A stretch of DNA of 32,000 nucleotides, taken from the NCBI GenBank assembly GCA_031256725.1, contig JAIRQE010000024.1, forward strand, positions 1 through 32,000. Reading direction: 5' to 3'. Origin of the DNA: Propionibacteriaceae bacterium. GTDB lineage: Bacteria > Actinomycetota > Actinomycetes > Propionibacteriales > Propionibacteriaceae. Under the pieces are notes generated by a model that was not told the DNA's origin, ran no database searches, and saw only the letters and a list, made by a program, of their open reading frames with translations. This document shows, one piece after another, positions 1,873-17,193 of this stretch. Both the position numbers and the translations under genes were made by a program. Each line of letters opens with the position of its first letter. The stretch's first letter is position 1.

Positions 1873-2240
1873 GGGGATGACTGGTTTCGACTTGGAACGG
1901 TAGTTCTAGGAGAAGCGGGCCGAGGACTCAGGGTTATCTCGTTAACGATCCTTGAAACCAATAAGTGCCAACGATGTTCGCACCAACTTCGCTCTTGCAG
2001 CCTGATCTGCAACCGAAGGGTCAGCCTAGAGGTGCCTTCCCTCTAGTACCTGGCCTCGTTTAGAAGGCTAACTTAGGTACCCTTGTCCTAGGGGTACCAT
2101 AGGACATTCATAGTGACTGGGCTTGTTCATGACGTGCAACCGAGAGCATGAAAGCCGAGAAATACGACAAGAGTAGCTGCGCCCGGAGAATGCCTAGTTC
2201 GCCTTTCGAGGACGGGGGTTCGACTCCCCCCATCTCCACT
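1873..2240 (+). ncRNA. ssrA: tmRNA (transfer-messenger RNA)
   Basis: The 5' GGGGATG (1873-1879) pairs with the 3' CATCTCC (2231-2237) to give a 7-bp acceptor stem with G3:U70, followed by discriminator A. The T-arm is GGGGG-TTCGACT-CCCCC (2214-2230). The internal tag reading frame GCC AAC GAT GTT CGC ACC AAC TTC GCT CTT GCA GCC TGA (1967-2005) encodes ANDVRTNFALAA*. Confidence 0.93.
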
Positions 2241-2373
2241 TAAAGTGTCTTATTCGAACACTTGCCGAAAATCAATTTTGAACACAAGGAAGCAAATTGG
2301 AGAAGGACAAACATACGGTTCTTTGCCTTTGATTGGGAGGGTTTCATGGAATGGCTGAAAGACAATCTACCCA

Positions 2374-2811
2374 TTGTGCTTAGGTACAGTGGTGGCTCTC
2401 GTGTCTGCCGTTATTTCGATAGTCAAAGCTTTAATAGAGCGCGATGGTAGCTCCAGGACATGGAAGTCGCTGGAAAAGTCGACAACTATTTATTGCAGTA
2501 TGCCTGATGACTTACCAGCAAAGTCCTTAGCTGCCGACATCGTCCACGCAGAAGCAACGAGAGTCAAAGATCGGCTAACCCGAAAGGTCAACTCTGGAAA
2601 CCTGAGTGCATTGATCTTTGTCTCCGTTGTGGGCGGCACTTTTTCATATTTGCTTGTGCTTTGGGCTACAAACGCTTCTCAAGTATTGTCAATTGTTGCG
2701 TGGATACTGTTCGGTCTTATCGCGCTCTTCACCCTCTTGATGGCCATAAGTGGATTTTCGCTTCTATATGCGCCAAACAAGAATTCCGATAAATCTAAAA
2801 CGAGGGAGTAG
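2374..2811 (+). CDS. Hypothetical membrane protein (N-terminus uncertain, possibly frameshifted)
   Basis: 145-aa ORF from TTG 2374 with hydrophobic segments (VVALVSAVISIV, LIFVSVVGGTFSYLLVLW, IVAWILFGLIALFTLLMAISGF). A much better start (GGGAGG 2335-2340, 5 nt, ATG 2346) lies in another frame and reads MEWLKDNLPIVL before diverging. Confidence 0.45.
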   Translation: MCLGTVVALVSAVISIVKALIERDGSSRTWKSLEKSTTIYCSMPDDLPAKSLAADIVHAEATRVKDRLTRKVNSGNLSALIFVSVVGGTFSYLLVLWATNASQVLSIVAWILFGLIALFTLLMAISGFSLLYAPNKNSDKSKTRE

Positions 2812-2858
2812 GGCCAGCTTGCATTGACGCGTACGGTTAGCCACCGTACACTTGAGTT

Positions 2859-3146
2859 ATGCCAACAGCCATGATACCCACTCGCGATGCTCGCCTTGAT
2901 CTGCGGATGACCGCAGATAATCGGGCTCTTATCAGTGAAGCCGCTCAGCTCAGTGGTACGAGTCTCACTGATTATGTGATGTCAGTTGTTGTTCGTGCTG
3001 CACGTCAGGATGTGCTGCAAGCCAGGGTGCTTCGACTTGATCCTGAAGCATGGGATGACTTCATGGTAGCACTTGACGAGTCAGATACCGATGCTATGGC
3101 TGTCCTGAGATCCCGCGTTACTCGTTGGGATTCAACAGCACCGTGA
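2859..3146 (+). CDS. DUF1778-family (TacA-like, RHH) type II antitoxin
   Basis: 95-aa product. RLDLRMTADNRALISEAAQLSGTSLTDYVMSVVVRAARQDV...PEAWDDFMVALD matches the DUF1778 pattern. Its TGA stop overlaps a GTG (GTGA at 3143-3146) that opens the GNAT toxin frame. Confidence 0.85.
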   Translation: MPTAMIPTRDARLDLRMTADNRALISEAAQLSGTSLTDYVMSVVVRAARQDVLQARVLRLDPEAWDDFMVALDESDTDAMAVLRSRVTRWDSTAP

Positions 3147-3618
3147 ACTTCCTAGAACCTCGTCGTATTCACCAAGGTGACCCAGTTGACAATTTCGACT
3201 GTGGTGTCCCGTCACTGAATGGTTGGTGCACCAGGCTCTTCGTAACGAGGTAAGCGGAGACTCACGAACCTATGTGTCCATTGATGCTGGCATCCCCCTC
3301 ATCGCCGGCTACTATTCACTTTCATCGTGGGCAGTTAGTCGTCAAGAATCGGGTGGTTGGCTCTCACGTAATGCCCCTGAACCTGTGTCGGTCATCCTGC
3401 TTGGAAGGCTCGCTGTGGATCAGACTTTTCGTGGTACGGGCCTGAGGAGTGACCTTCTCACTCATGCGATTCGTAATGCGAATGTTGCTGCGAGCCTTGT
3501 GGGTGCCCGAGCGCTTGTTGCCGAAGCCCTCGATGATCGTGCCGCACAGTTTTATCTTCATGCTGGACTCCGTCGTTCAGCGGTCAGAAGCGATCTTCTG
3601 TTCCTTCCACTGCGTTAG
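3143..3618 (+). pseudogene. GNAT-family acetyltransferase toxin (TacT-like), apparently frameshifted
   Basis: From GTG 3143 the frame reads VNFLEPRRIHQGDPVDNFDCGVPSLNGW, then stops. The long ORF (3223-3618, another frame) continues LVHQALRNE...LLGRLAVDQTFRGTGLRSDLL...ALVAEALDDRAAQFYLHAGL, the GNAT-toxin core. The span is 476 nt, one short of a multiple of 3. Confidence 0.75.
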
Positions 3619-3687
3619 ACGACTCATGGCAAACGCTTGAGTGACTGTTCTCAAATTATGGTCTTTAGCGACCGATAAATAAGACCT

Positions 3688-3925
3688 GACAAGGGATTTC
3701 GGTAAGGGCAAAAACGTTCTAATAATGCTCCATTTCCTCCACTCAATACGAAGCCAGGCCGCGCGCCTGGTTTTTGTATTGAACCGAACTGTGGACTCGA
3801 ATCCGAGAGAGTCCGAGCGTTGGGAGAAGGCCCAGTGGGCCTTCGAGTAGCGAGGCCCGAGAAAGCCCAATAGGGCTGACGAGGGGTGGCTTGCGAAGCA
3901 AGGCACGTCGAACCCCCATCCAGCT
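3688..3925. repeat. Repeated non-coding element, complete copy (5' module 3688-3800; ssrA-3'-like module about 3802-3925)
   Basis: 3688-3796 aligns by eye with 5136-5254 (for example gttctaataatgCTccatttccTccac against gttctaataatgTCccatttccCccac). 3842-3925 aligns with 8096-8182 (shared ttcgagtagcgaggccc...gacgagggg...tgcgaagcaaggc.cgtcgaa). Confidence 0.6.
3751..3778 (+). terminator. Candidate intrinsic terminator inside repeat copy 1
   Basis: Stem CCAGGC (3754-3759) / GCCTGG (3765-3770) with a 5-nt loop, followed by TTTTT (3771-3775). It lies about 135 nt after the GNAT gene stop. Confidence 0.4.
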
Positions 3926-4019
3926 AATTGTTTTTGGTTAGCATCGGTGGTTTTACGACCTGGGGTGAAAAGAATAATGAACTATAAGCCAAGTTGAATG
4001 AAGTTACCACTGATGGTGG

Positions 4020-4427
4020 TTGGTGCACAGTTTTTCGATCAAAGTGTGCATGATGATGTATTCTGTTCATATGAGTACGGCAGTGATGACATTGGCTCCT
4101 GAGGCTGTTCGGTCTTCGGCTTCGGGGGAGTCTGTGTGGGAGAAGGCGTTGATTGAGTTCATTCGAGAGGCGTCTGCGGAGGGTATGACTGTCGTGGTGA
4201 GTACGGAAGTCAGAATGATGACTCCGGACGAAGTCGCCCGTGGTTTAAATGTCTCTCGTTCCACGATTTCTCGGCGTATTGCTGACGGCGCTATCAAGTC
4301 CACAATGATTGGTAATCGCCACCATGTTCCTTATCGTGAGTTCCAGCGATTGTGGGAAGACTATATGGGTAGGGTTGTGGACGCCTCCATTGAGGATATT
4401 GAAGCCGAACTGTTTACCGATGAGTGA
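4020..4427 (+). CDS. Excisionase-family helix-turn-helix protein, putative antitoxin (start uncertain, 4020-4071)
   Basis: The C-terminal half MTPDEVARGLNVSRSTISRRIADGAIKSTMIGNRHHVPYREF fits the MerR/excisionase-type HTH. Its stop overlaps the next gene's start (ATGAGTGA at 4420-4427). Confidence 0.7.
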   Translation: MVHSFSIKVCMMMYSVHMSTAVMTLAPEAVRSSASGESVWEKALIEFIREASAEGMTVVVSTEVRMMTPDEVARGLNVSRSTISRRIADGAIKSTMIGNRHHVPYREFQRLWEDYMGRVVDASIEDIEAELFTDE

Positions 4428-5079
4428 GCAGTCTTCTTCTGGTTTCACCGTTTTTCTGGATGCCAATGTTCTTGTCAAACCGGTGACTCGCACTCTCATT
4501 ATGGCTTCAGCTAAGTCAAGTGGGTACGGGGTTCGCTGGAGCGCTTATGTGGAAAGTGAAGCCGTGCGGAACGCTCGATTGGGTCAGAAGAGCATTGTGG
4601 AAGTCCGAGGTTTGTCAGGTGATGAACTTTCCCCTTCAGGGATTAATCCTGATCGTTTTGATGGAACATCAGAAAAAGATCGTCAGGTTCTTGCAGATGC
4701 TGAGTCGGCTGGTTGCCTGTTCCTAGTCACTGAAGACGTGGACGATTTTGGGCTCTCAGATCTCGACTTGGTAGGGGTTGCCGCTGTGAATCCTGATCTG
4801 TTTCTATCGTTGTGCACGACAGCTGAGGGATACATTGAGGCATTGACCTTGATGACGTCGCGATTCAGGAACCCTGAGCATACTCTGGATCAACTTCATA
4901 GTCAGCTGGGGAAAGCCCATCCCTTGACTGTCGCAAAATACCAATTCCTGTTTTCGGTCGAGCCAATACAGTCAACTCATAATCAACCCAGGATCATGTA
5001 TCGTGGGACTCGATGTTTGGTGTGTCTTGGTACGAGATCTACTATCACTCAGGGACGTTGCCCCGACTGCACAGAGTAG
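4420..5079 (+). CDS. PIN-domain protein with C-terminal CxxC...CxxC zinc-ribbon, putative toxin
   Basis: From ATG 4420 it reads MSEQSSSGFTVFLDANVLVKP (first PIN acidic residue), later SEKDRQVLADAESAGCLFLVTEDVDDF (distal acidic residues). The C-terminus is RCLVCLGTRSTITQGRCPDCTE. It is translationally coupled to the upstream HTH gene. Confidence 0.75.
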   Translation: MSEQSSSGFTVFLDANVLVKPVTRTLIMASAKSSGYGVRWSAYVESEAVRNARLGQKSIVEVRGLSGDELSPSGINPDRFDGTSEKDRQVLADAESAGCLFLVTEDVDDFGLSDLDLVGVAAVNPDLFLSLCTTAEGYIEALTLMTSRFRNPEHTLDQLHSQLGKAHPLTVAKYQFLFSVEPIQSTHNQPRIMYRGTRCLVCLGTRSTITQGRCPDCTE

Positions 5080-5135
5080 GTAAACCTACCAGGATTCTCG
5101 CATAGTGGACTTCCATCTTTCATAGAAATTACTCT

Positions 5136-5254
5136 GACTAGGGATACTGGCATTGGCTGAAGTGTTCTAATAATGTCCCATTTCCCCCACAGAGGATTGA
5201 GCCGAGAGCAGCGAAAGCTTGCTCTTGTTGTCGAGGCGATTGAACTCTGTTGAC
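5136..5254. repeat. Repeated element, second copy of the 5' module only
   Basis: Aligns with 3688-3796. It contains a different hairpin at the equivalent position (GAGCAGC-GAAA-GCTTGCTC, 5207-5225) and the shared attgaac..ctgt.gac block (5239-5254). Confidence 0.55.
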
Positions 5255-5709
5255 GAAAGCCGCAGGCTTGAGGAACACCAAAGTTCGCTTATCCGAACAC
5301 CTGGCCTGGAAAGGACATCCGCATCGACGTGGTGTTCCAGGATTGAGGGATCGAGTTGTTGGTGGCGTTGCCAGTAGTCGGCTTGGAGTCTGGCTTCGGG
5401 GTCCATGATTGCGTCGTATGGGCCGGAGAAGTAGGGGCAGACATCACTGTTCTTTGAACGGGAGAACTCAATACTCATTCGTGCTCCGCACTGGCACCAT
5501 ATCAGTCCCGTGAGGTAGTGGGCTGCACATCGCTGTTTGGAGGACGGGTTCAAGGGGGCGCAGCCCCCTGGGTTGGCATTGAGATTGAGCAGAGAGATAT
5601 CGAAATGACCTGCTTGCTCATGATGAAAGAGATAGTCCACGAGCGAAGCTCGGGGCCATAAAGGCATGTACCGAAAAGGGGTACGACGATGACTCGGTAG
5701 AATCGCCAA
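5167..5709 (-). pseudogene. Possible remnant of a large serine recombinase (C-terminal zinc-ribbon region only)
   Basis: The 180-aa ORF has no resolvase catalytic domain. It does contain PLWPRASLVDYL...AAHYLTGLIWCQCGARMSIEF...CPYF, which resembles the W...L...Y.G and hxLxGLxxCxxCGxxM zinc-ribbon segment of large serine recombinases. Upstream it abuts an unrelated gene. Confidence 0.35.
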
Positions 5710-5725
5710 ATAGTGGAACGTCGGA

Positions 5726-6361
5726 TCAGTTGCTCAACGCAGGTGCCTTTCGTAAATACTCATTGCTTTCCACCTGTTCCAACATGAACCAGGCAAGGTC
5801 AGCCCGGGAGAGCGTATTGCGGAAAGAATCTCTGCCCAGGTATCCGGCTCGAACCTGTTTCGATAATGGTTTGTCAGTGAGTATTGAAGCGATCCTCACG
5901 AGCGTCCAGCCGCAACTAGAATCTCGAATCAGCTGACTGTATCTTACAATCTGCTCATAGCTCGTTGGCCTGCCTCGTCTTATCATGCCCCTTCTCAGCT
6001 TGGTGCGAAAGCTCTCAATATCAGAAATGTCTTGTGCGCTAGTTGTTGACAGTGCTATGAATCGAACGACACCGTACTCTTCCATGACGGATAGAATGTT
6101 CGCGATCCCGTCGCAGAGCTCCTCATCACCTTGTTTGCCCATGGGGCCAAGCGCACTGAGAACACAGTCGCATCCCTCGATTGCTATCCTCAATGATTGC
6201 CGACTATCCAACTTGCCTGCTTTTTTGGTCAAGCAAGGGCTTTCGGAGGAAATCCTGCTTGGATCGCGTGCATAGGCGACGACATCATATCCGCGCCCAA
6301 GCGATTGGCAGACAAGCTCTCGCCCCGTTCTTCCCGTTGCACCGAATATTGCCACCTTCAT
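5726..6361 (-). CDS. NAD(P)H-binding oxidoreductase (atypical SDR / NmrA-like)
   Basis: The 211-aa product starts MKVAIFGATGRTGRELVCQSLGRGYDVVAYARDP (GxxGxxG Rossmann motif). It is divergent from a TetR gene. Confidence 0.8.
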   Translation of the reverse strand: MKVAIFGATGRTGRELVCQSLGRGYDVVAYARDPSRISSESPCLTKKAGKLDSRQSLRIAIEGCDCVLSALGPMGKQGDEELCDGIANILSVMEEYGVVRFIALSTTSAQDISDIESFRTKLRRGMIRRGRPTSYEQIVRYSQLIRDSSCGWTLVRIASILTDKPLSKQVRAGYLGRDSFRNTLSRADLAWFMLEQVESNEYLRKAPALSN

Positions 6362-6503
6362 TCAGAACCTCCGTTTTTCGGCTGATAACTAGACAACGTG
6401 TTGTATAATCTAATCTACCTTGGCTTGCTGTCGGCATCAACCAACAGTATTTGATTATCTGTCGGATGATTCACAGAACAGGCACAGATAGAAAGGACGC
6501 TCC

Positions 6504-7115
6504 ATGAAAAAGCAGCCTGAAGTAACCCAAAAGACAAAGAGGGCTTTCATGGATGCCTTTTGTGAGCTGTATGTCCAAAAACCGATTGAGAGAATATCTA
6601 TCCAGGAGATAACAAACAGGGCGGGGTATAACCGCAGCTCCTTCTACCAGCACTTCTGCGATATCTATGAGCTGTTGGACTATCTGGAAAACTATGTGTT
6701 GGATTCCATGCTTGAAAAACTGCCTGCTGACAATGCTTGGCTGCAAGGGCTGCTTACGCCAGACAACGAGACGAATTTTTACCTGAAAACCCTGTTTGGC
6801 GAATTTGGAAGTAGCCACTTTATCGAACGGCTGAAGGCGAGTGTCCCGCTCGACTCCCATAAAACAAGCATTTCCAGCGATGATCCCTTGGCTCCCTATA
6901 TCATGGAGTTTCACCTCTCTACGGTGCTTTCGCTCATGAGACTTTGGTATCAAAGGGATCAGGACTTGTCGCAAGCAGAGCTGTCCGAATTGACTTATCG
7001 GTTATATATGGGAGGAACATCTGCACTAGCTGCTTTTGAGGCTCTTACCCACCAAAATCAAGGGCATCCTGGACGGATCGCGGCTGTGCGGCCAACTTCC
7101 GCGCCTGGGTGTTGA
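6504..7115 (+). CDS. TetR/AcrR-family transcriptional regulator
   Basis: The N-terminal HTH TKRAFMDAFCELYVQKPIERISIQEITNRAGYNRSSFYQHF is the TetR signature. The last ~25 aa (after YRLYMGG) look like a non-native extension. Confidence 0.8.
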   Translation: MKKQPEVTQKTKRAFMDAFCELYVQKPIERISIQEITNRAGYNRSSFYQHFCDIYELLDYLENYVLDSMLEKLPADNAWLQGLLTPDNETNFYLKTLFGEFGSSHFIERLKASVPLDSHKTSISSDDPLAPYIMEFHLSTVLSLMRLWYQRDQDLSQAELSELTYRLYMGGTSALAAFEALTHQNQGHPGRIAAVRPTSAPGC

Positions 7116-7281
7116 GATCACTCGAGGCCACATCAATATCACTTCGGGAGACGACGGTTTACAGGCCTACACTGATGTGAGTGTGACCGGTGGAGTGATT
7201 ACGGACGATGTAGCCGATGATGGGTTGAAGGCTGAGAAAATCATCTCCATTGGTCGAGCAGTCTTATCTTTATTAAGGTAG
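7036..7281 (+). pseudogene. Possible gene fragment (repeat-type secreted protein remnant)
   Basis: The short ORF reads INITSGDDGLQAYTDVSVTGGVITDDVADDGLKAEKIISI, which resembles the repetitive 'I.I.sgDDGi.a...v.I.GG.i' units of some Firmicutes surface proteins. No credible start or RBS, and it overlaps the TetR 3' end. Confidence 0.2.
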
Positions 7282-7358
7282 ATCCTCTCAATAAACTCAA
7301 ACAGAAAGATAACTGGGGTTCAATACAGCGTCTTATGAATAGCCATCTGAGAGATAGT

Positions 7359-7988
7359 ATGAAAAAAAGAGTATCCATAACACTTGCGGCGGTTTTATCT
7401 ATCATAATTGTATCTGGAGTGTTATTGTTTATAGTCAATAATACAATCAGTAATGTGTTTGACGAAATGTATCTGTCTGTTAAGGCCCCAAGATCTTCAG
7501 ACGCTAGCTTTTATTTTATGCGGGAGGTTGGAAGGCTAGCACAAGACCGCGCTCATGATAATTATGATTTTTATATGGGTGTATATAAAAATTCATTGAA
7601 TGAGGGGGAAAGTATCTCACTTTCGCTAAGTCTAGACACTGAGATCATTCGTGTCTGGGGTGGGATTGAAACTGAGAATAATTATCAAATATATTATACG
7701 TACGAATACAATTTCAAAACGAAAACCTTGGAAATCAAACCTGTGAGAATCTGGGCATACAACTCCGATAAGCTGGGTTTCGAAGAGCGCATTGACGATC
7801 CTACACAGATCTCCGCGTTTTTAAGGGAGCATAGTATCTCCCGAGCAGATCTAGAACGACACAGAGACTATTTTCTTTATGAAAAATTTTTAACCGACTG
7901 GACACAGGGCAACGGGGAGCATAGTTTGTTTTCGGCAGGAAATTACGGCAAGTTTACAATAATTGATAACACTCTGGAAGGTCTGTGA
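7359..7988 (+). CDS. Hypothetical N-terminally membrane-anchored protein (AT-rich, foreign-looking)
   Basis: From ATG 7359 it reads MKKRVSITLAAVLSIIIVSGVLLFIV, then a Y/N/E-rich soluble domain. Codon usage is visibly AT-richer than the flanking genes. Confidence 0.6.
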   Translation: MKKRVSITLAAVLSIIIVSGVLLFIVNNTISNVFDEMYLSVKAPRSSDASFYFMREVGRLAQDRAHDNYDFYMGVYKNSLNEGESISLSLSLDTEIIRVWGGIETENNYQIYYTYEYNFKTKTLEIKPVRIWAYNSDKLGFEERIDDPTQISAFLREHSISRADLERHRDYFLYEKFLTDWTQGNGEHSLFSAGNYGKFTIIDNTLEGL

Positions 7989-16434: not shown

Positions 16435-17193
16435 CTAGCTGCTGAGTACAATCCTCGTGAACAGCGAATCGAGTTCCTCCCATCCGGGGTTGGGTTCACC
16501 TGGAAGGGCTGCAATTCGAGAATCAAGAATTGGAAGAGTTGTCTCAATGTGCTGGTTGAGAGCCTCAATTCTGGGTACCTTCTTCTTCTCAGGAGTATTG
16601 ACTTTGGCCTCAAGCAGGGCCTCAGTGTTGGCCGTCAGATTGGCGTCGGCTTGCGCGGAAACTAGATCAGCAAAAAGAACTGGCGGTGGAGTCTTCCGAT
16701 CAAGTATCCATTGGCAAGCAAGAATAGGGCGCAAGACATACAGATACTTCTTGAGTGTGACAGTGTCCCCTCGAAGATGTTCACGATAGTTGCCTGCAGC
16801 CATACTGAAATAGTGGTGAAGTGCCGATTTTGCCTGAAAGTACAACGCACTCACCTCGCGTACCCACTCCCACTCAGTGGTGGTGCGATAGATGACTGGG
16901 GAGTTCATCCACTCGAATAGGGTCGGATTCGAGCCCCGCATTAACCTCAGGGTCTTATCAAGATCCCATCCATTAATATCAAGAACCTCATCTAATTGCC
17001 ACTCAATGACATCCCGTGTCTTTCCGAGTCGCCAGTAGAAATCTGGCTTACGTACATAGATAAAACGTACGTCATAATCACTGTCCGGGGAGGCAAAACC
17101 CCAAGCTCGCGAACCTGATTCAACAGCATGAAGGATACGGACCGACTCATTGGTCTCAATCTCTGTCAACTTCTCTGCAATAATTTCCAGCAT
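16435..17193 (-). CDS. Nucleotidyltransferase-domain protein (Pol-beta superfamily, PF10127/YcgL-like)
   Basis: 252 aa. ILHAVESGSRAWGFASPDSDYDVRFIYV carries the GS...D.D nucleotidyltransferase motif typical of this family. Confidence 0.8.
   Translation of the reverse strand: MLEIIAEKLTEIETNESVRILHAVESGSRAWGFASPDSDYDVRFIYVRKPDFYWRLGKTRDVIEWQLDEVLDINGWDLDKTLRLMRGSNPTLFEWMNSPVIYRTTTEWEWVREVSALYFQAKSALHHYFSMAAGNYREHLRGDTVTLKKYLYVLRPILACQWILDRKTPPPVLFADLVSAQADANLTANTEALLEAKVNTPEKKKVPRIEALNQHIETTLPILDSRIAALPGEPNPGWEELDSLFTRIVLSS

Follow-up and report, generated by a model that had tools for sequence, protein, structure and literature searches.

Behind ssrA, the tmRNA gene of a Propionibacteriaceae bacterium, a non-coding element of about 240 nt occurs twice, and the question that it raises is whether it is a worn attachment site left by integration into ssrA, a structured RNA, or something of another kind. 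An initial annotation of the stretch analysed here (the window, 32,000 nt in all) had entertained the first two views together. We suggest, at a probability of about 0.6, that the 3' module of the element is the conserved distal end-piece of small, integrase-less islands lodged in the T-loop of tRNA and tmRNA genes in actinobacteria of the Propionibacteriales type. The best explanation of the window, for which the same figure covers the explanation as a whole, is that two decayed end-pieces mark islands stacked behind ssrA, one occupying 2240-3925 and the other 3926-8185 (Table 1).

Repeats and cargo behind ssrA

The repeats lie where the initial annotation had placed them: 3686-3742 matches 5134-5190 at 75% over 57 nt, the similarity of the 5' module pair reaching z=15 against shuffles, and the 3' module recurs as 3842-3886 against 8096-8140 (84%) and 3883-3912 against 8138-8167 (90%), or 84-90% over 75 nt overall. 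With a profile of the 3' module, these two copies (E=1e-39 and 1e-33) are the only matches in the window. Seen together with its relatives outside the window, the 3' module is a self-contained unit of ~145 nt, made up in order of L (an inverted target end), a core, and R (a direct target end).

The interruption of copy 2 by ~2.8 kb was borne out as well, its likeness to copy 1 extending to ~5257 and resuming at 8062. The break falls between TTGACGAA (5250-5257), which ends 5' module copy 2 and is the start of an L of the copy 1 type, and GCGAACC (8048-8054), at the T-loop complement of L, and the inserted block brings a fuller inverted tmRNA-like end. We prefer to read the split as an insertion of 2.8 kb that came later and struck one specific point of the unit, the inverted T-loop. 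On one reading of the sequence at this joint, the block itself may have integrated in inverted orientation into L as a pseudo-target, bringing its own restoring fragment.

Table 1. Coordinates of ssrA, of the stacked islands behind it and of the parts of the two copies of the element
Feature	Position	Strand	Basis
ssrA (tmRNA gene), proposed docking gene of the island array	1873-2239	+	ARAGORN; Rfam RF00023, 158.6 bits
Island 1 cargo	2240-3685	.	Pfam TacA1 and Acetyltransf_7; gene calls on the identical Logan contig L004
Membrane protein, island 1 cargo	2374-2811		
TacA antitoxin, island 1 cargo	2859-3146		Pfam TacA1
GNAT TacT-like toxin, island 1 cargo, apparently frameshifted	3223-3618		Pfam Acetyltransf_7
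5' module copy 1	3686-3775	+	Repeat D1; similarity to copy 2, z=15
Unit copy 1, left edge L, truncated inverted T-loop/target copy TGTGGACTCGAA	3790-3801	+	Corresponds in position to the L of L001 and of L003
Unit copy 1, conserved core	3802-3907	+	Identity to L001 and L003; fold z=-3.8; covariation counts
Copy 1 P1	3826-3832 with 3838-3844	+	
Copy 1 P2	3864-3868 with 3873-3877	+	
Copy 1 P3	3890-3894 with 3898-3902	+	
Unit copy 1, right edge R, decayed T-loop-to-3'-end fragment TCGAACCCCCATCCAGCT	3908-3925	+	Position of the exact tRNA fragments in L001 and L003
Island 2 cargo, toxin-antitoxin-like pair	4056-5079	+	TIGR01764, NF046100, HTH_17
Excisionase-family HTH protein, island 2	4056-4427		
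PIN-domain protein, island 2	4420-5079		
5' module copy 2	5134-5257	+	Repeat and extended alignment to copy 1
2.8-kb block splitting copy 2; G+C lower, down to 0.38	5258-8030	.	
NAD(P)-binding protein, 2.8-kb block	5726-6361	-	
TetR regulator, 2.8-kb block	6504-7115		
TipC-family immunity protein, 2.8-kb block	7335-7988		
Unit copy 2, left edge L, inverted tmRNA-like 3' end GGTGAATTATGGTGGGGGCGAACC	8031-8054	+	Best inverted window match to the ssrA 3' end; p=0.02
Unit copy 2, core; 5' half decayed, 3' half (8096-8162) well conserved	8055-8162	+	
Copy 2 P2	8118-8122 with 8127-8131	+	
Copy 2 P3	8145-8149 with 8153-8157	+	
Unit copy 2, right edge R TCGAATCGCGGGTGGAGCTCCAC	8163-8185	+	

Toxin-antitoxin pairs, a TetR regulator and an immunity gene are found among the cargo of the stacked islands. 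In the TacT-like gene of the first island (3143-3618), the GNAT frame that opens from a GTG overlapping the tacA stop ends after ~40 codons (FDCGVPSLNGW...), and the remaining GNAT domain lies in another frame, at 3223-3618, which fits a decaying island. The gene-proximal ends of the islands, when compared, had nothing in common and revealed no conserved proximal arm. Some ~8 kb past the array lies a gene of the RlaP nucleotidyltransferase family, which belongs to an RNA-repair pathway (16435-17193, minus strand; Pfam E=6e-88); at gathering thresholds, its surroundings yielded neither a tRNA-like Y RNA nor another Rfam family. Outside ssrA itself, the direct match to the ssrA 3' end that ranks highest in the window is TTCGCTCCCCCCAAGACTCCAC (23933-23954), which scores 14 against a shuffled maximum of 13.5 and sits ~300 nt upstream of tRNA-His within an unannotated 213-aa ORF; this resemblance is probably due to chance.

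The 5' module of copy 1 runs through CTGACAAG, 22 nt, GTTCTAATAATG and CCATTTCCTCCAC to a terminator-like hairpin, CCAGGC-cgcgc-GCCTGG followed by T5 (3754-3775), which comes from direct reading of the sequence, the hairpin scan having listed only its minus-strand mirror and left the plus-strand form with T5 unscored. Copy 2 has a different hairpin, GAGAGCAGC-GAAA-GCTTGCTCT, where similarity to copy 1 continues, and a promoter-like CTGGCA-16-AATAAT at 5147-5174. Common to both modules is a C/U-rich stretch, CCATTTCC(T/C)CCAC, with a hairpin after it; read as RNA, CCAUUUCC(U/C)CCAC, this stretch resembles the anti-Shine-Dalgarno sequence (3686-3775, 5134-5230). Apart from the modules themselves, the window holds no complement to the module stretch CCAUUUCCUCCAC. 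The tail of the module was also considered as a further decayed ssrA fragment and set aside (p=0.03-0.3, not significant). Of the two copies of the unit outside the window, L001 lacks the 5' module and L003 has a marginally similar sequence; the module is a separable repeated piece that accompanies the end-piece and is dispensable to it. By its sequence it is a candidate small RNA or regulatory region, a short transcript being plausible.

Edges that follow the target gene

The outside copies come from a Propionibacteriaceae genome (L001, found in a 20-mer scan of one genome per species) and from a metagenome contig (L003, found in a gapped pattern scan of metagenomes). In L001, an intact tRNA-Met is followed by an insertion of 144 bp that comprises L, core and R and nothing more; R is an exact 22-nt direct repeat, GTTCAAGTCCCGCTCCCGCTAC, of the tRNA-Met sequence from T-loop to 3' end, at a spacing of 144. 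The same site is empty in relatives: among 14 RpmG-homologue loci drawn from related Propionibacteriaceae-type contigs, 13 contain tRNA-Met, in every case ~30 nt from rpmG and with no insert. No relative syntenic with the window locus turned up. In L003, an intact tRNA-Ala is followed by an island of 4.95 kb, a sequence like the 5' module, and then L, core and R. The island carries an MNT/HEPN toxin-antitoxin pair, a TetR regulator, an MFS transporter and a small HTH protein, and R is an exact copy, over 30 nt, of the tRNA-Ala sequence from T-loop to 3' end, TTCGAATCCCGTTAGCTCCAC, which extends into a duplicated flank that is 81% identical over 300 nt. In both loci, then, the last ~20 nt of the 3' module are a displaced gene fragment. 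This identity of R with the local target leads us to regard the 3' module as the junction on the distal side of islands whose integration takes place in the T-loop of tRNA-type genes.

The left edge follows the target as well. In L001 and L003, L is an inverted, ~80% identical copy of the end of the neighbouring tRNA: GCGGAAGAGGGAGTTGAACCCGAGA aligns to the reverse complement of tRNA-Met, GCGGGAGCGGGACTTGAACCCGCGA, in the former, and GGATGTAATGGGATTTGAACCCG to GGAGCTAACGGGATTCGAACCCG in the latter. Scores of L against its own target are 17 (L001) and 15 (L003), both with p<0.0005 against shuffles, and the other targets score lower. In L001, the tRNA-Met 3' end and the L one base on form a near-perfect, loopless 22-bp hairpin (3897-3948), which Rfam microRNA-precursor models score below threshold, and which could disturb the tRNA's own folding or 3' processing.

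In the window, both edges are worn. The L of copy 1 retains little beyond the T-loop complement and resembles the reverse complement of the ssrA T-arm, GGAGTCGAACCC, weakly (p=0.04), while its R shares with ssrA just CCCCCATC (p=0.06). The L of copy 2, at 8031-8054, is the top inverted match to the ssrA end in the window and yet stands at background level, and its R matches best the tRNA-Ala 3' end (p=0.002; resident ssrA p=0.43), being more like a 3' end of the tRNA-Ala or canonical tmRNA type than like the resident ssrA. Above window background, neither R fragment (TCGAACCCCCATCC, TCGAATCGCGGGTGGAGCTCCAC) matches the resident ssrA 3' end, and the window L and R match neither each other nor the resident ssrA. 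We regard the window copies as fossils that may have arisen at some other gene or in some other host. With four copies known, two of them decayed, the conclusions on L and R depend on the two outside loci.

Of the hallmarks of islands in tRNA or tmRNA genes, the displaced 3' fragment is present in L001 and L003 and decayed, not above background, in the window, and an integrase within the island is absent. No recombinase domain was found in window ORFs of at least 90 aa (to ~25.8 kb), in the main ORFs of L003 or in 8 kb of L001, where the insert of 144 bp is too short to encode one. An integrase-like ORF in a further locus (L015) proved to be a fragment within an unrelated toxin-antitoxin cluster.

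The unit family is either rare or too variable for scans with exact words. Pattern scans of the genome collection, exact and gapped, yielded two matches, L001 and a chance one, and those of the metagenome collection yielded L003 as their single match. The chance match (L002 2716-2760, labelled Methylophaga) covers the end of a coding sequence and then GC-rich repeats such as GCGAACGAAGTGAGTGAG, has nothing else in common with the unit, and agrees with the number of 20-mer matches expected by chance in 1.2e12 bases. Four patterns run on viral contigs gave nothing real, six matches to the P1-hairpin pattern there all being coding sequence for E-K-A...A-F-E, and blastn against phage and plasmid collections gave nothing meaningful. 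Neither a unit nor an upstream tRNA was present at 22 loci with homologues of the MNT antitoxin, and homologues of the epimerase upstream of ssrA were 71% identical at most and lay in a locus that is not syntenic. Upstream of every MNT gene, the MNT/HEPN cassettes have one and the same sharp start, (A)CTGATAAG(A/G)TTG/GGCTT-ATG (L003 1853-2715, 6809-7563; L005-L022; L043-L045), a boundary that is an inverted-repeat operator overlapping the start codon, and the pair itself has the look of an independent mobile cassette.

A folded core and its possible roles

Despite their different target genes, copy 1, L001 and L003 share a core of ~100 nt with a mean identity of 84%. Its sense strand folds into a junction closed by the pairing of L with R, with three to four hairpins in the core: a CCC-GAGA-GGG hairpin, a 7-bp helix GAAGGCC/GGCCTTC with a variable loop, the 5-bp P2, and P3, built on the invariant TGCGAAGCA. 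Two linkers, GAGTAGCGAGGCCC and GACGA.GGGG, are invariant too, and the minimum-free-energy folds of L001 and L003 both contain the L:R pairing. Against shuffles, the fold reaches z=-5.9 in L001, -2.9 in L003 and -3.8 in copy 1; the core of copy 2 has no significant fold (z=+0.3). P2 appears as AGCCC/GGGCT, as GATCC/GGATC (L001) and as AGTCT/GGGTT, and the outer part of P3 as GUG/CAC, AAAG/CUUU and CGG/CCG. In the alignment of the four sequences, the named helices have 94.5% of their cells paired and five pairs altered on both sides, compared with 27-54% pairing in slid controls.

The earlier suspicion of a structured element is thus upheld as regards conserved structure, but through other helices than those proposed. 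The pairs GGCCC/GGGCT, TTCGA/TCGAA and GACG/CGTC are absent from the intact copies L001 and L003; GGGCT pairs instead with the adjacent AGCCC, in a hairpin that covaries, and the TCGAA of the supposed outer pair is the target T-loop. The change from G-C to G-U that had been taken as a sign of RNA is real, but it lies in the decayed copy 2, which has three G-U pairs and one C-A mismatch, and makes a weak argument. Likewise, the ~20 extra nt thought to stand in place of a T-loop are the conserved hairpin of the unit on TGCGAAGCA.

As to which strand folds, both do so almost equally well, and wobble pairs over all helices (about five favouring the plus strand, two the minus) are not decisive. The loops read GAGA, GGAA, GAAA and GAGA on the sense strand, plus a GAA inside TGCGAAGCA, and GNRA loops cap P2 in three of four copies and P0 in all three copies that retain it, on the sense strand only. 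This favours the sense strand as the folded strand, be it RNA or single-stranded DNA. Several other ideas fell away: the core is not palindromic, its two halves being unlike; a minus-strand pseudo-tRNA finds no echo in ARAGORN or the tRNA covariance model; and no TGG precedes L, as a primer-binding site of retroviral type would have it.

We posit that a recombinase supplied in trans uses the unit as its recombination site. In an integrated island, cargo follows the intact gene and the end-piece comes last; in it, L repeats the T-arm and the 3' acceptor strand of the gene in inverted form, the core of ~100 nt follows, and R is the displaced fragment. Strand exchange would take place where the 7-nt T-loop starts, at the foot of the last hairpin, so that nearly the whole site would remain at the far end of the island and ~21 nt would move to the gene-proximal side, rebuilding the gene. 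Pairing of L with R on the sense strand of the gene would let the folded unit present a double-stranded copy of the target end, with the core as a platform for the recombinase or an accessory factor; this presentation of the target by a hairpin is the favoured sub-model. In the window, the second island would have been split later by the 2.8-kb insertion at the T-loop complement of its inverted copy. The recombination-site role and its mechanism we infer, because four copies exist and no recombinase was found. What the sequences themselves show is the anatomy of the unit, the tracking of the target by L and R, the conserved structure and a site that is empty in relatives; the sequence examined has no recombinase gene. 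The geometry fits site-specific recombination, with an identity block starting from the T-loop, all conserved sequence on one side of the crossover, and stacking at one gene.

The folding evidence bears also on an unlikely reading that is nonetheless the most probable of the alternatives, in which the unit would itself be a gene for a structured non-coding RNA, read from the sense strand of the neighbouring gene and with an L:R helix imitating the acceptor and T stem of a tRNA. Enzymes of tRNA processing could then excise it from read-through transcripts, or it could act on the cargo, and its position at island borders would be secondary. The sense-strand GNRA and GAA loops, the compensatory changes in the hairpins and the strong fold z-scores all speak for such an RNA, as do the orientation of the unit, which is that of the tRNA or tmRNA gene in four of four copies, and the location of the L001 unit inside the tRNA-Met-rpmG transcription unit. 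However, Rfam 15 covariance models, even with E<=10 allowed, do not match the element in the window, in L001 or in L003, no conserved promoter came to light, and the terminator hairpin with T5 of copy 1 lies just upstream. A tRNA-like helix, moreover, gives by itself no reason to copy a particular neighbouring gene, and the R of L003, running into 300 nt of duplicated flank, is a signature left at the level of DNA.

It is very unlikely that the unit is a miniature transposable element, moved by a transposase in trans, whose terminal inverted repeats happen to be like tRNA ends. L and R are indeed inverted repeats of 22-27 nt around a short body, and L001 offers a solo 144-bp copy at a site empty in relatives. 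Yet the repeats vary with the local gene, which a transposase binding its own ends would not tolerate; R is an exact end of the host gene; the duplication in L003 spans 300 nt and is not a short target-site duplication; and no transposase gene was found.

Weakest is the reading in which the last 100 nt of ssrA were duplicated and diverged to give the whole 3' module, brought by the island as a long attachment identity block, which we consider highly improbable and largely refuted: the element does lie directly downstream of ssrA, and the core of copy 1 has one marginal match to it (GGAGAAGGCCCAGTGGGCC-TTCGAG against 2184-2210; z 3.3, reached in 2/500 shuffles), but the cores of copy 2, L001 and L003 do not exceed shuffles against ssrA, the unit profile reaches E=2.9 only, the tmRNA covariance model has no match to the element at E<=10 in 3500-8400, and the core is not a worn ssrA end, since the same core flanks tRNA-Met and tRNA-Ala fragments. 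The series of ordered blocks said to be shared with ssrA 2140-2239 was not recovered, the best alignment of copy 1 being this different block. Of the attachment-relic view, what survives is a link between relics of island borders and the 3' end of a gene of the tRNA type; what does not is the derivation of their body from a diverged ssrA end. We hence rank the module for a trans-acting recombinase first, followed by an independent structured RNA, a miniature transposon and an ssrA duplicate.

Comparison with known systems

Islands in tRNA and tmRNA genes are a main route of gene gain in bacteria, and their attachment sites are normally seen as an integrase-specific arm combined with a short copy of the target. 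Islander-type islands, which use tyrosine integrases, have the same plan as the present loci: an intact gene with a direct, displaced 3' fragment, a block of identity from the T-loop to the end of the gene, and tandem stacking at one gene (PMC4383910). Unlike these, the present islands lack an integrase and measure only 0.14-5 kb, and the present unit has a conserved, hairpin-rich arm of ~100 nt common to three target genes, beyond which lies the target end in inverted copy, and no conserved gene-proximal arm. In Ms6, a mycobacteriophage and thus a phage of actinobacteria, strand exchange by the integrase occurs in the T-loop of tRNA-Ala, and the enzyme can be retargeted through the attP core alone (PMC1762012), so that a conserved arm with a swappable core has a precedent; as in Ms6 attP, the core can change while the rest of the site stays constant (PMC1762012). 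No such precedent exists for the inverted copy of the target, for hairpins that covary or for a missing proximal arm; taken together, the three recall sites that act as folded single strands, integron attC and CTX attP(+). The role of L likewise has no precedent, as a classical double-stranded attP needs no inverted copy of its core 100 bp away.

Serial integration at one tRNA or tmRNA gene, in which older elements are displaced outward and partial copies of the gene remain along with degraded cargo, is also known from the tycheposons of Prochlorococcus (10.1101/2020.12.28.424599) and the ssrA-island arrays of Dehalococcoides (PMC3146451), with partial tRNAs marking the remnants. Those elements, unlike the present islands, carry their own recombinases, and the portions of the two texts that were searched describe no conserved structured end-piece or inverted target copy. 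The features of RNA-guided transposon nucleases and recombinases are absent too: in the scanned ORFs there are no genes of the TnpB/IscB (omega RNA) or IS110 (bridge RNA) kind, and no Rfam family matched. The design of the unit matches no described attachment site or RNA family that we found.

One conserved, structured arm serves three target genes and is joined by an inverted copy of whichever gene is its neighbour. If that inverted copy is functional, target choice would reside in a hairpin that mimics the target and not in the recombinase, which would explain hopping between tRNA genes and could be reprogrammed. Even if it is not, the unit is a marker for tiny integrase-less islands that are missed by software keyed to integrases, and it accounts for the repeat architecture behind ssrA.

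The attC sites of integrons and attP(+) of the CTX phage are recombination sites that act as single-stranded hairpins: folding of an imperfect inverted repeat restores a duplex site, nearly all of which remains on the far side of the cassette. The present unit differs from them in several respects. Its ends (GTTGAAC/GTTCAAG, or tRNA-specific) do not fit the GTTRRRY and RYYYAAC boxes of attC, and no IntI or Xer gene of a dif-like XerCD or integron context was found in the ORFs scanned; its middle part conserves primary sequence, whereas attC conserves structure only; its stem copies the end of a tRNA gene; its host is Gram-positive and of high G+C; and a single-stranded stage is suggested by analogy only. 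We nevertheless entertain, as a quite unlikely extension of the trans-recombinase reading, an actinobacterial cassette-capture system analogous and unrelated to integrons, in which a folded, target-mimicking module would let a recombinase in trans dock small, integrase-less cassettes serially in the T-loop; its stem would restore, as a duplex, the end of the tRNA or tmRNA gene from the T-loop on, and the stem sequence, not the protein, would choose the target. As in attC and CTX attP(+), an imperfect inverted repeat, able to rebuild a duplex by hairpin formation (L:R in the L001 and L003 folds), encloses a variable or structured middle with the crossover at its extreme end, and, as in integron cassettes, the cargoes are small, integrase-less, rich in toxin-antitoxin genes and stacked at a fixed docking site.
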